This document shows, piece by piece, positions 51,644-54,957 of a stretch of DNA of 64,000 bases. The notes beneath the pieces were generated by a model, which was not told the DNA's origin, did not search any database, and saw only the letters and a list, made by a program, of their open reading frames with translations. Where the stretch lies: positions 160,001 through 224,000 of the forward strand of contig CAWIYV010000001.1 in NCBI GenBank assembly GCA_963840455.1. Direction: 5' to 3'. Both the position numbers and the translations under genes were made by a program. This stretch comes from Nitrospirota bacterium (GTDB lineage: Bacteria; Nitrospirota; UBA9217). The first letter of the stretch is position 1. Every line of letters begins with the position of its first letter.

Positions 51644-52474
51644 CTACCGGCCCGTACCTGCCTCTTTCTTTTCGAGCACCGCGTTCAGGCTCCCGGTGCG
51701 ATAGCCTTCGAGGTCGAGGCAAATGTAGACATACCCCAGTTCCTTGAATGCGTCCACGATCCGCTGCCGCACGTCTCCGGCGGCAAGGCGGACGAGGTCA
51801 TCCTGCTCGACCTCGATGCGCGCCGTGTCGCCATGATGGCGAACTCGGACCTGGCGAATGCCGAGGCCGCGGATGGCGTCCTCCGCGGCCTGGATGTTCT
51901 TGAGCAGATCGCGAGTAATGGGGGTACCATACGGTATGCGCGAGGAAAGACAGGCGAGGGAAGGCTTGTCCCACATGGGCATGTCCATGCGCCGGGCAAG
52001 GTCCCGGACCTCCTGCTTGGTGAGGCCCGCTTCCGCAAGGGGGCTGCGCACGGAGAACTCCCCGGCTGCTTTCCTGCCCGGCCGGTGATCGCGGAGATCG
52101 TCGATGTTCGTACCGTCCAGGATGTACGCGATCCCTTCGGCATCGGCGATCTGCCGAAGCTTGCCGAACAGTTCCTGTTTGCAGTGGTAGCAGCGGTCCG
52201 GCGCGTTCCGGGAGAACTCGTCCCGGGTGAGCTCTTCAGTAGCCAGGATGCGGTGCCGGACACCGAGCGACGCCGCGAATCTCTTCGCGGGTTCAAGTTC
52301 GGCCGGCGGGTAGGTCTCGGAGATGGCGGTAACGGCAATAAGGTTAGGGCCAAGGACCTCGGATGCGGCGCGGAGGAGGACAGAACTGTCGACGCCGCCG
52401 GAATAGGCGAGAACGGCCAGCTTCATCTCGCGTAACAGGGACCGCAGCCGGTCCCACTTTTCATCGGTCTGCAT
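51644..52474 (-). CDS. larE: LarE-family ATP-dependent sulfur insertase
   Basis: SGGVDS PP-loop, RCYHCK, D.RPG, ACLSSR, RVR.HG. Confidence 0.92.
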   Translation of the reverse strand: MQTDEKWDRLRSLLREMKLAVLAYSGGVDSSVLLRAASEVLGPNLIAVTAISETYPPAELEPAKRFAASLGVRHRILATEELTRDEFSRNAPDRCYHCKQELFGKLRQIADAEGIAYILDGTNIDDLRDHRPGRKAAGEFSVRSPLAEAGLTKQEVRDLARRMDMPMWDKPSLACLSSRIPYGTPITRDLLKNIQAAEDAIRGLGIRQVRVRHHGDTARIEVEQDDLVRLAAGDVRQRIVDAFKELGYVYICLDLEGYRTGSLNAVLEKKEAGTGR

Positions 52475-52545
52475 TGCGGCGATAATAACACAGCACGAAC
52501 GTAAGTGTCAATAAAGTCCTTGCGGGCAAGGCGCTTTCCGGCCCG

Positions 52546-53343
52546 TTACTTCTTCGCCATGCCCTGGATGTATCCCAGTTTGAGGGAGAGGGCCGTCGCC
52601 GCCTCCTGGACCTTCAAAGCAACGCCGCCTTTATCAAGACGGTCGTCGCCAAGGCGGTTGGCCGGAGCGATGATGCCCAGTGCAGCGATCACTCTCTTCG
52701 AAAAATCCCTGACCGGCGCGGCAACGCTCTTCACGTCAAGGTCGCACTCCTCGTTCTCGACCGCATATCCCCGCTCCTTGATCCCTTTGAGCTCGATAAG
52801 GAGGGCATCGCGGGTTCGCAGCGTGCGGGGTGTGACTGCGGGAAGCTCGTTCTCGGGATACAGGTGCTCGATCTCTCCCGGCGGGAGGAAAGACAAATTA
52901 GCCTTGCCGACCGCGGTGCAGTGAGCGGGAAGCATGGCCCCGACACGGGACACCGCCCGGACCGTCCGGTCCGTCTCGACGCTGTCCATGTAGATGACCT
53001 TGGTCGCCCGCAGGACCGCCACGACCGCAGTCTCACCGGTGGACACCATCAGGTCCTCCAGGATGGGCCGGGCCTGCCGCCGGCACTCGCGCTGCTCAAT
53101 GAAAATCGAACCGAGCTGCAGGGTCTTGGGCCCGAGACGGTAGTTCTCCGTATCACGGTTCTGCTCGATATAGCCGCGGTGCTCCAGCGTGGCGAGCAGG
53201 CGAAAGACATTGTTCTTGTGCAGTCCGAGGCGCTTGGAAAGTTCCGTCACGCCGAGCTCGTCGTCCGTCTTAGTGAAGGACTCAAGGATATCGAGTGCGT
53301 GGGAAACGGACTGGATCAGGTAGTTTTCTTTATCCCGTTTCAT
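52546..53343 (-). CDS. IclR-family transcriptional regulator
   Basis: QSV..ALDIL HTH, HCTAVGK, GYAV..EE...SVAAP; alternative GTG start at 53373. Confidence 0.93.
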   Translation of the reverse strand: MKRDKENYLIQSVSHALDILESFTKTDDELGVTELSKRLGLHKNNVFRLLATLEHRGYIEQNRDTENYRLGPKTLQLGSIFIEQRECRRQARPILEDLMVSTGETAVVAVLRATKVIYMDSVETDRTVRAVSRVGAMLPAHCTAVGKANLSFLPPGEIEHLYPENELPAVTPRTLRTRDALLIELKGIKERGYAVENEECDLDVKSVAAPVRDFSKRVIAALGIIAPANRLGDDRLDKGGVALKVQEAATALSLKLGYIQGMAKK

Positions 53344-53369
53344 GGATGTGCGTCGAGCCTCCGCGGCAA

Positions 53370-53801
53370 TCACCGCGCTGCAGGGAAGGTCCCCGGCTGT
53401 TTACCGGTCATGACCGGATATCCCCTCCCATTCCACTCGGGCATACCGCCCTGGAAGACCATGAGGTACGTATAGCCCAGTCCCGCCGCCGAACCCGCGG
53501 CGGCCTTGCTGAGCGTTCAACCGACCCCGCGGCAGTAGAAGATGAGCGGTGCGGTCTTGTCCTTCGGAAGCCTTCTTTTCTCCGCCGCGATCCGTTCGGC
53601 AGGGATATTGACAGCGCCGGGTATATGGCCTGCCAGGTACTCATCAGGAGACCGCACATCGATGAGAGCGGCCTTCTTCTCCCCTGTCATCAAACCCGCG
53701 ATCTGATCTGCACCGATGATGAGATATTGCGCTACTACCGCCGTTGCGGAGAAAAGAACGCTCAAAACTACCATGGCTGGTAAGCTCTTTCTCATGGCCA
53801 T
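53370..53801 (-). CDS. exported single-domain rhodanese, probable selenoprotein (UGA 53519-53517 = Sec)
   Basis: Signal peptide, IDVR..EY..GHIPGA; frame continues YCRGVG-UGA-TLSKAA...GY...FQGGMPEW...GYPV to TGA 53372-53370. Confidence 0.85.
53475..53514 (-). promoter_or_regulatory. candidate bacterial SECIS element
   Basis: Immediately 3' of UGA: lower stem GCUCAG/CUGGGC, upper stem GCCGCCG/CGGCGGC, G-containing loop CGGGUU starting after a 19-nt spacer. Confidence 0.72.
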
Positions 53802-53958
53802 GTCCCTCCTCATTGTTGTAAAACAAGTGTTTACTTATTAAATCAGCAGCGGGTTTTTGTCAAGATAAATAAACCGAAGGTCAATCTTCGCTATTGCAAT
53901 GGCGCGGTGCGGAAGGGTATTATTCACCACTCTGGTAGCACCTTCAGGGAGGTTTTTT

Positions 53959-54957
53959 TTGAGGAACAAAGCTGTCGCCCTCATTTCGGGCGGACTTGAT
54001 AGTGTACTTGCCGCTCGGGTCGTCATGGAGCAGGGCTACGAGGTTACCGGCCTGTACTTCACGTCACCCTTTTCCAAATCCTACGGGAGCGAAGAGCTCA
54101 CCCCCGCCGCCACGGTTTCCCGGACTATCGGCATCGACCTCCGCGTCATGGACCTGGGACAGCCCTATATCGACCTCATCAGGAACCCGAAACATGGTTA
54201 CGGAAAGAACATCAACCCCTGCATCGACTGCAAGATCCATATGCTGGAACGGGCGAAAGCGGTCATGGACGAGATCGGAGCGCCCTTTGTGGTCACCGGC
54301 GAGGTTCTGGGCCAGCGGCCCATGTCCCAGCGTCGCGACACGCTTCACATCATCGAACGCGATTCCGGCCTCAAGGGGCTTATCTTGCGCCCGCTTTCGG
54401 CGACCCTTCTCCCGCCCACCCGGGCGGAGCAGGACGGGCTCATCGCCCGCGACAAGCTCCTGGGCATCAGCGGCCGCAGCAGGACGGTGCAGCTTCAGTT
54501 GGCGGAGCGTTTCGGCATCCAGGGTTTCTCCACGCCTGCGGGAGGATGCCTGCTGACGGACAAGAACTTCGCCGAGAAGCTCCGCGACCTCTTCCAGGAC
54601 CAGGAGACGATCACCCCCCACGACATCCAGCTCCTGACCGTAGGCCGGCATTTCAGGTTCGACAGCGGCGTCAAGATCGTGGTGGGCCGGAACAACCGGG
54701 AGAACCATGTCCTGATGGCCCTCGCCGCGCACGGCTACCATCTCTTCATGCCCCATGGCTTCCCCGGCCCGGTGGCCCTCTTTTCCGGAACTCCCGATCC
54801 CGAGGTAATGCAGGCCATCGGCAGGCTCATCATCACGTACAGCAAACAGGCCCCGGGCCAAGTCCGCCGCATCCGTTTCGGCAGCGAGATATTCGACCCT
54901 GGAGATCCGCTCCCCATCCAGTCCATGGGACTCAAGAAGATCGGTACCAAGCACTGA
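53959..54957 (+). CDS. ThiI/MnmA-like PP-loop tRNA sulfurtransferase (no THUMP), Cys-rich
   Basis: SGGLDS, NPCIDC, TGEVLGQRPMSQ, GGCLLT, GRHFR; RBS GGAGG before TTG 53959. Confidence 0.87.
   Translation: MRNKAVALISGGLDSVLAARVVMEQGYEVTGLYFTSPFSKSYGSEELTPAATVSRTIGIDLRVMDLGQPYIDLIRNPKHGYGKNINPCIDCKIHMLERAKAVMDEIGAPFVVTGEVLGQRPMSQRRDTLHIIERDSGLKGLILRPLSATLLPPTRAEQDGLIARDKLLGISGRSRTVQLQLAERFGIQGFSTPAGGCLLTDKNFAEKLRDLFQDQETITPHDIQLLTVGRHFRFDSGVKIVVGRNNRENHVLMALAAHGYHLFMPHGFPGPVALFSGTPDPEVMQAIGRLIITYSKQAPGQVRRIRFGSEIFDPGDPLPIQSMGLKKIGTKH

Follow-up and report, generated by a model that had tools for sequence, protein, structure and literature searches.

The 64,000-nucleotide window analyzed here (C1:160001-224000 of a 4.03-Mb Nitrospirota genome assembled in 14 contigs) carries on its minus strand, at 53370..53813, a rhodanese gene with an in-frame TGA codon in its active-site loop. 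Sequence comparison makes it very likely that the gene is intact and codes for a small single-domain rhodanese, exported to the periplasm, with selenocysteine (Sec) at codon 99. Taken as a whole, the locus is best explained, with good confidence, as encoding a Sec rhodanese that would use Cys–Sec chemistry and would form, together with the gene for an IclR-family regulator, a two-gene unit under the control of that regulator.

The minus-strand open reading frame (ORF) 53813..53517 terminates in ...LIFYCRGVG followed by TGA (53519-53517). Past this codon, the same frame stays open for 48 further sense codons (TLSKAAAGSAAGLGYTYLMVFQGGMPEWNGRGYPVMTGKQPGTFPAAR) and then reaches a second TGA (53372-53370); translation with the internal TGA as Sec (U) gives a product of 147 residues, counted from the ATG at 53813. 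On this read-through product, the Pfam model PF00581 (Rhodanese) matched residues 42-128 over model positions 9-100 of 102 (E-value 2.8e-18), with a score of 66.7 bits against a gathering cut-off of 22.2. Since the match spans the internal TGA, a single domain crosses this codon, which is not expected by chance. The translation and the domain match bear out an initial annotation of this DNA, which had claimed that the ORF stops in the middle of its domain at FYCRGVG and that the frame remains open for 48 codons.

The internal codon was then compared among homologues. Our six-frame search covered 61 genomes, namely the window's own genome and 60 relatives, and identified strong orthologues (E-value at most 4e-40, 49-99% identity) in 25 of them. 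These genomes all lie within the window's own family (its own genome and 24 of the 36 other family genomes), and the orthologue was absent from all 24 genomes of other families in the phylum. Every orthologue has FYCRGxx, then TGA or TGC, then [T/S/G]LS; the internal codon is TGA in 24 cases and TGC in one (L023), and never TAA or TAG. The terminal stops comprise 13 TGA, 8 TAA and 4 TAG. A pattern scan using one genome per species, and able to detect only TGY at this column, found 15 additional loci with TGC or TGT (Cys forms), of which eight are titled Nitrospirota or Nitrospirae and seven Anaeromyxobacteraceae, Anaeromyxobacter or 'delta proteobacterium'. Among these additional loci, one shares a genome with L023, one is frameshifted and one is cut at its N terminus. 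In alignment A2, residues C94, U/C99 and S102 were invariant in all 28 rows. C-x4-C loops also occur in database proteins (P0039, YCRGTGC; P0016, YCNGVKC; P0034, YCSGYDC) and in BH2092 (PDB 3nhv, YCWGPAC), as expected from the earlier statement that related rhodaneses have YCxGxxC loops, and the prediction that homologues would have TGA or Cys at this column agrees with the codon counts given above. One database homologue of 121 residues, P0019, has Arg at the Sec column (FSCREVGRTLGS) and departs from the family at several other conserved motifs; it may be a decayed or mis-assembled copy.

Coding constraint was compared on the two sides of the TGA in the 25 orthologues. Averaged over pairs, identity at codon positions 1, 2 and 3 was 0.76, 0.78 and 0.50 over the 38 codons after the TGA versus 0.75, 0.80 and 0.42 over the 45 codons before it, and amino-acid identity was 0.638 on both sides. 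This equal constraint suggests that the downstream part is translated in this frame. A tree was also built from 37 Sec and Cys forms, leaving out L042 (duplicate genome), L043 (N-terminally truncated) and L051 (frameshifted). The Sec/Cys label changes once or twice on this tree; since its base is unresolved and it has no root, the tree gives no direction for the change.

These comparisons bear directly on the possibility that the TGA is a true stop, the gene being a nonsense pseudogene or coding for a 98-residue fragment and the open downstream frame being a remnant. Gene callers agree with such a stop, 116 of the best 120 database homologues listed being 82-100 residues long, and the downstream hairpin described below is not significant when a single sequence is folded. 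Nevertheless, the TGA is kept in 24 genomes without ever being replaced by TAA or TAG, the constraint downstream equals that upstream, Cys occupies the column in 16 loci, and a hairpin with wobble-position covariation is found in Sec forms only. According to the structural model, a fragment ending in the active-site loop would also lack the last helix-strand-helix of the domain. We therefore regard a true stop as extremely improbable. The short database entries have a simpler origin: gene callers stop at the UGA and leave stumps of about 94 residues, several of which (P0002, P0003, P0087 and P0091) end in ...FYCRGxG. The lengths of the listed homologues thus support the earlier suspicion that the gene is mis-annotated as truncated. 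No NCBIfam model reached its cut-off on the full-length product, which, together with the stump entries, suggests that automatic pipelines keep missing this protein. The alignment and the hairpin suffice to build an annotation model for it.

The TGA was also compared with other assemblies. A contig from run X1 covers 53432-53852 with one difference (53733), and a contig from run X4 covers 53432-53693 with three differences (53563, 53575 and 53598). The TGA is intact in both of these independent contigs, as the initial annotation required of a genuine codon; X1 and X4 belong to different studies, and the source sample may be among these runs. Run X11, from an RNA library, yielded a contig over 53229-53593, which extends from within iclR across the intergenic gap and the internal TGA. 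Since the material of all four runs consists of contigs, this span cannot prove a single transcript, and the runs are uninformative on expression level, strand and transcript ends; gaps in X11 cover carry no meaning. In all, 56 differences are unlisted, and for X5 and X11 one of these could lie at the TGA.

Next, we analyzed the sequence downstream of the UGA for a selenocysteine insertion sequence (SECIS). According to PMC1088965, bacterial selenoprotein genes have, immediately 3' of the UGA, a stem-loop whose small apical loop contains G, and the hairpin found here has this feature as it is worded there. With nucleotides numbered from the U of the UGA, the minimum free energy (MFE) fold of the first 65 nt contains a lower stem (nt 6-11/40-45), an upper stem (nt 16-22/29-35) and the loop CGGGUU, and 19 nt separate the UGA from this loop. 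The two-stem hairpin and the 19-nt spacer of the initial annotation are therefore present in the MFE fold, and comparison among orthologues supports the hairpin. In RNAfold MFE structures, a GC-rich stem-loop with its loop at nt 24-27 keeps one register in 23 of the 24 Sec forms; the MFE fold of L014 is shifted, yet all six core pairs are present in register. With the stem drawn as nt 16-23/28-35, the loop starts 20 nt after the UGA and has G first. Not every orthologue folds the lower stem; those that do are chiefly the closest to the gene of the window.

Base pairing was then scored on the ungapped alignment A1. A nine-pair helix was paired in 83.3% of the cells versus 74.3% in column shuffles, none of 500 of which reached the observed value, and in 32-58% when the partner strand was slid by 1-3 columns. 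The pair 18-33, which joins two wobble positions, occurs as GC (10), CG (9), UG (2), GU (1) and UA (1) and is unpaired once. The pair 21-30, in which both partners are third codon positions, is CG in 23 Sec forms and UG in one, and is thus paired in 24 of 24; among the Cys forms, it is paired in 3 of 14 (one of seven from Nitrospirota and two of seven of the Anaeromyxobacteraceae type). Five consecutive core pairs are intact in 22/24 Sec forms versus 1/14 Cys forms, and G is present in the first two loop positions in 24/24 versus 7/14. The Cys forms encode a similar Ala-rich peptide, and the structure of the Sec forms is lost in them. Together, the covariation and the decay in Cys forms argue for a conserved SECIS-type hairpin 3' of the UGA, in line with what the initial annotation had proposed.

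Several observations weigh against this interpretation. When folded as a single sequence, the hairpin is not significant (z -1.5; 15 of 200 shuffles were as good), so that its reality rests on the comparison. Ala codons fix most of the core pairs, meaning that the encoded Ala-rich peptide forces part of the stem, and the GC-rich Cys-form genes fold hairpins in other registers. The comparison of Sec with Cys forms gave a Mann-Whitney p of 0.017, which is not a clean value since the sequences are related; because Sec and Cys forms are kin, all contrasts between them overstate independence. No Rfam match was obtained in 53200-54000 at E-values up to 1, a result that says nothing either way. Two Cys forms with TGT, L037:1801-1851 and L038:663-713, retain most of the stem and an AGGU loop, which looks like a fossil SECIS after a recent Sec-to-Cys change; Cys forms with such a partial hairpin show the decay of a SECIS once its UGA is lost.

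The genome was examined for the machinery of Sec insertion. It encodes selA, selB beside selA (on contig C7), selD and two tRNA-Sec genes detected by aragorn, so that all of the sel and tRNA-Sec genes on which the initial annotation made its proposal depend are present. The gene selD (L003, C14:252661-253584) itself contains one in-frame TGA (...SRTCGU AAKIGPADL) followed by its own hairpin, suggesting that selenophosphate synthetase is a selenoprotein in this organism. Hairpins similar to that of the window's rhodanese gene follow the UGA of selD and of a haem-rhodanese gene in the same genome, described below; in both, the stem starts 15-18 nt downstream of the U of the UGA, and the loop is GGC. 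Most bacteria have a single tRNA-Sec gene; the two found here lie at C1:311722-311820 (99 nt) and C9:389438-389532 (95 nt), neither of them beside selAB.

This machinery also bears on the alternative that the UGA is read through without Sec, by near-cognate insertion of Trp or Cys or under a reassigned code. Such read-through would likewise explain the conserved downstream frame, and nothing specific speaks for it. TGA, however, also terminates this gene itself and 13 of the 25 orthologues, the residue aligned in homologues is Cys and not Trp, the Sec machinery is complete, and the UGA is followed at the usual distance by a SelB-type hairpin that the Cys forms have lost. Read-through without Sec is thus very unlikely, and decoding of the UGA as Sec is preferred.

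The same genome contains other rhodanese genes related to this one. A second protein of the C-x4-U type is encoded at C11:216082-217509 (L057:1066-2493); a signal peptide and a CANCH haem motif accompany its three rhodanese domains, the first of which contains YCAGVTUAMS, and a GGC-loop hairpin follows the UGA. Over 90 gapless residues, it is 42% identical to the Sec rhodanese of the window, with the C and U columns aligned. Open frames of this haem-rhodanese type, 467-513 residues long with one TGA, are listed in at least 20 related genomes. A tandem rhodanese gene at C9:387376-388122 (L053:1401-2147) is of the C-x4-C type (YCNGVKC) and similar to P0016. It has an in-frame TAG where its homologue has Glu, and its frame is lost further on. 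A LysR-like ORF adjoins it, and the second tRNA-Sec gene is 1.3 kb away; it is probably a decaying paralogue.

The N-terminal part of the rhodanese was examined for its start and for export. Candidate start codons are the ATGs at 53813, 53801 and 53795, and the sequence AGGAGG would fall inside the ORF if 53813 were used. Because of the spacing to AGGAGG, the start is probably 53795 (MRKSL...), which is best served by it, or 53801. In alignment A2, a hydrophobic N terminus and an A-x-A-Q motif are present in nearly all rows. The signal peptide is typical, and its conserved AxA-Q motif together with the Sec/Cys column is consistent with the exported Cys/Sec rhodanese that had been proposed from the sequence. 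The positions of all features of the locus are collected in Table 1.

Table 1. Features of the Sec rhodanese–iclR locus (window coordinates; residues counted from ATG 53813)
Feature	Position	Strand	Basis or remark
Rhodanese selenoprotein gene (predicted)	53370..53813	-	Longest reading 147 codons plus stop; same architecture in orthologues (n = 25)
Shine-Dalgarno sequence AGGAGG	53805..53810	-	9 nt before ATG 53795, 3 nt before ATG 53801
Predicted signal peptide, residues 1-28	53730..53813	-	Basic n-region, hydrophobic core, V-V-A before Q29; cleavage site judged by eye
Rhodanese domain, residues 42-128	53430..53690	-	PF00581, AlphaFold2 model, Foldseek
Codon of Cys94, canonical catalytic cysteine	53532..53534	-	Aligns with catalytic Cys of 3tp9 and 6mxv
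In-frame TGA, predicted selenocysteine 99, five residues past Cys94	53517..53519	-	Orthologue codons
SECIS-type hairpin	53475..53514	-	Core stem-loop 53504-53485 (nt 16-35 from U of UGA); lower stem 53514-53509 with 53480-53475
True stop TGA of the selenoprotein	53370..53372	-	Orthologues end close to this position (TGA, TAA or TAG)
IclR-family regulator gene, 265 residues	52546..53343	-	Pfam HTH_IclR and IclR_C; start ATG 53343
Promoter -35 box TTGACA	53858..53863	-	cTTGACAa kept in 14 of 14 orthologous upstream regions printed
-10-like box TAATAA	53835..53840	-	17 nt past the -35 box; inferred promoter
Palindrome TAAACAcTTGTTTTA, putative IclR operator	53819..53833	-	One base past the -10 box
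Terminator-like hairpin after iclR	52518..52531	-	Consensus scan

Next, we modeled the full-length product. The AlphaFold2 model showed a confident rhodanese fold (mean predicted local distance difference test score, 85.4; predicted template modeling score, 0.75) with a lone low-confidence helix at residues 11-24. The best Foldseek matches were all rhodanese domains (3tp9, 6mxv, 3nhv, 1yt8, Alr3790, YgaP and GlpE). In phmmer alignments to solved structures, Cys94 corresponded to the catalytic Cys of YCRTGGRS (3tp9) and YCGG (6mxv), and U99 to the Arg at position +5. Sec is therefore not the canonical nucleophile but would stand at +5, at the end of the active-site loop C94-R-G-V-G-U99-T-L-S102 (C-x4-U-x2-S). 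In structures of rhodanese and of GlpE, the side chain at +5 is directed toward the catalytic sulfur, so that a selenylsulfide between Cys94 and Sec99 would be sterically easy.

The proposed mechanism is as follows. The GC-rich hairpin would recruit SelB with Sec-tRNA(Sec), and the UGA at 53519-53517 would be decoded as Sec. Sec99 would take the place of the usual +5 Arg on the rim of the active-site cradle. A chalcogen substrate, sulfane sulfur or another, may load onto Cys94, the selenolate of Sec99 would resolve the loaded Cys94 by forming a selenylsulfide, and a periplasmic thiol-reducing relay of the CcdA/DsbD type would reduce the selenylsulfide again. The idea that Cys94 and Sec99 act as a redox pair draws on the invariance of both positions, on the fusion of the same loop to a DsbD-like module in the selenoprotein family TsoB and on the three CcdA/DsbD-like membrane proteins that are encoded in the genome; it is evenly balanced in our judgment. 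Two points count against it: the closeness of the two side chains is deduced from the loop geometry of other rhodaneses, and the comparison of neighboring genes revealed no reductase gene linked to the Sec rhodanese gene, the upstream neighbors varying between genomes. No TsoB scored above the cut-off in the genome.

The Cys forms offer some gene context for the function of this rhodanese type. In L046:99-3424 and L048:1-3011, the Cys-form gene has a gene for a TauE/SafE-family permease upstream and one for a pyridine-nucleotide-disulfide oxidoreductase downstream, and L046 has a second rhodanese gene between these two; both loci look like a sulfur-handling cluster without IclR. In L044, a thioredoxin gene and a thioredoxin-reductase-like gene lie upstream of the Cys form. 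The context of these three loci points to thiol or sulfur redox.

These data can also be read as the same selenoprotein with another chemistry, that of a plain periplasmic carrier of sulfane sulfur or selenium like Sud or PspE, in which a persulfide or perselenide would be delivered to a partner enzyme on one chalcogen and the second would only tune reactivity, without any redox cycle. The fold and the loop are indeed of the sulfurtransferase type, the periplasmic protein Sud (1qxn) and PspE are among the sequence matches, and the TauE-family and oxidoreductase context of L046 and L048, with the second rhodanese of L046, fits sulfur transfer. Conversely, both positions are invariably Cys or Sec in the 28 aligned rows, the Cys form of L044 stands behind the thioredoxin and thioredoxin-reductase-like genes, and in TsoB, the curated family closest to this protein, the same loop is, to judge from name and motif, joined to a DsbD-like electron-transfer module. 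A carrier of this kind is possible, and we consider it rather unlikely; the Cys94–Sec99 pair is retained as the basis of the proposed chemistry.

The second gene of the proposed unit encodes an IclR-family protein that matched PF09339 (HTH_IclR) in its N-terminal part (63.3 bits) and PF01614 (IclR_C) in its C-terminal part (145.4 bits). As the initial annotation had recognized, this gene is a partner of the rhodanese gene: 24 of the 25 orthologous loci have it next, in the same orientation, and the IclR proteins there are 70-93% identical and start with MKR[DE]. It also follows the rhodanese gene in eight of eight Nitrospirota Cys-form loci and in none of the seven loci of the Anaeromyxobacteraceae type. 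The conserved start ATG 53343 is 26 nt past the rhodanese stop, and the consensus scan found no terminator-like site between the two genes. The GTG at 53373 was rejected as a start for IclR, as it has no Shine-Dalgarno sequence and all 24 orthologous IclR proteins align from the equivalent of ATG 53343. Thus, the GTGA overlap at 53373-53370 noted earlier does exist in the sequence, but it does not mark the start of the regulator.

A promoter was inferred upstream of the rhodanese gene from the boxes in Table 1; at the place of the -10 box, orthologues have TTTAATAA or boxes of the ATAATA type. The consensus promoter scan did not list this promoter, which speaks against it; the scan missed it because the -10 box ends in A. 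Beside the -10 box lies a palindrome, of which AAACAnnTGTTT is exact in 19 of the 24 loci with upstream DNA, and a copy with one mismatch occurs at the same place in four more. The palindrome is missing only from L028, the sole locus without IclR. In a search of the 4.03-Mb genome with a position weight matrix, the palindrome of this locus was the best match (23.5), followed by a site at C3:3920 (20.3) without recognizable promoter context, and the whole-genome search yielded no regulon. In the proposed model, IclR would repress its own rhodanese–iclR unit via the palindrome TAAACAnnTGTTTA beside the -10 box. Autoregulation through this putative operator is somewhat favored by the sequence comparison. 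A further step, which we put forward only tentatively, is that a rhodanese fold turned periplasmic Cys–Sec oxidoreductase and a dedicated IclR repressor with a near-unique operator make up a small self-contained response unit to a periplasmic chalcogen stress or substrate (e.g. sulfane sulfur, selenite or arsenate); neither such a unit nor its signal is described in the literature searched. The conserved promoter-proximal palindrome is a handle on the inducing signal, and this signal would be the shortest route to the function of the gene.

The gene after iclR has its own strong promoter-like site (52511-52482, 11 of 12 matches). The selenoprotein–iclR pair is flanked by two genes for PP-loop ATPases of the sulfur-insertion type. 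The one at 53899-54957 (+), divergent and upstream, encodes a ThiI-like protein with an NFACT-R_2 RNA-binding domain. The one at 51644-52474 (-), downstream, has only Asn_synthase, NAD_synthase and QueC-type PP-loop matches in Pfam, and LarE-like is our own label for it. Because the rhodanese is predicted to be exported, its direct link to these ATPases is doubtful. Across the orthologous loci, the ThiI-like gene is the divergent upstream neighbor in seven, and a gene for a membrane protein with two EMGDKTQL motifs, which is probably UPF0016/GDT1-like, lies upstream in ten; beyond these cases, no constant upstream partner gene was found in these loci.

Rhodanese-like selenoproteins have been published (PMC13188914), and the kind, with a Sec/Cys pair and a SECIS, is well known; the member reported here is new and mis-annotated. 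The conserved regulator and the putative operator would be a modest addition to that known kind. PMC13188914, a review of 2026, tabulates five rhodanese-like selenoprotein forms: form 1 has the motif UxxS and PF00581, with reference WP_010941598.1 (PMC13188914, PMC9312934); forms 2 and 4 have UxxG; form 3 has CxU (NF041203); and form 5, TsoB, has UxxxxU with two Sec residues. Like form 1, the protein of the window has one Sec in a PF00581 domain, and its U99-T-L-S102 corresponds to UxxS, with S102 invariant in all 28 rows. If Sec stood in place of the catalytic Cys in a C-R-x-G loop, the motif would be the UxxG of forms 2 and 4, which favors the form 1 type. Comparing listed motifs, we consider it likely that form 1 is the C-x4-U-x2-S type found here. 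In contrast, the signal peptide, the C-x4-U pairing, the Nitrospirota lineage and the IclR partner are absent from the descriptions of form 1 in these partly available sources. The literature searched, with supplements and several primary papers outside reach, held no account of this Nitrospirota family or its IclR partner. ExtH of Geobacter was considered as a counterpart and rejected, as the accessible text of PMC5877670 describes a 49-kDa rhodanese-like protein and names the cytochrome ExtKL as the selenoprotein.

Four further systems share part of these features. The selenoprotein rhodanese_LYCAU (NF041203) is likewise small, with a single rhodanese domain and a Sec placed downstream of the catalytic Cys, but its spacing is C-x-U versus C-x4-U here, and the present protein, at 41.4 bits against a cut-off of 115, falls outside that family. 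BH2092 of Bacillus halodurans (PDB 3nhv, 3o3w), a rhodanese solved in structural genomics, shares the C-x4-C/U loop (E-value 4e-08) and is among the best Foldseek matches; it is a Cys form, and the title of its entry gives no function. PspE of Escherichia coli and Sud of Wolinella succinogenes, both weak sequence matches, are exported single-domain rhodaneses that handle sulfane sulfur. Unlike the present protein, they have a single Cys, lack Sec and carry no second chalcogen at +5. Finally, TsoB (NF045694, named 'rhodanese/DsbD fusion-like selenoprotein') is the best-scoring curated model, residues 25-138 matching model positions 38-160 of 572 with 60.9 bits. Against a cut-off of 805 bits this score limits the analogy to one domain, which tells against carrying the redox role over from TsoB, and the present protein lies outside the family as defined by that cut-off, the DsbD-like fusion and two Sec residues: it has 147 residues, Cys at the first position, one Sec and no DsbD-like membrane domain. 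Of the longer database homologues, 30 were multi-rhodanese proteins and none was named TsoB. The spacing of the two chalcogen residues is the same, U-x4-U in TsoB and C-x4-U here, and a Sec placed in this way five residues past the catalytic Cys points to a recurring Cys/Sec-x4-Sec redox module in the rhodanese fold.

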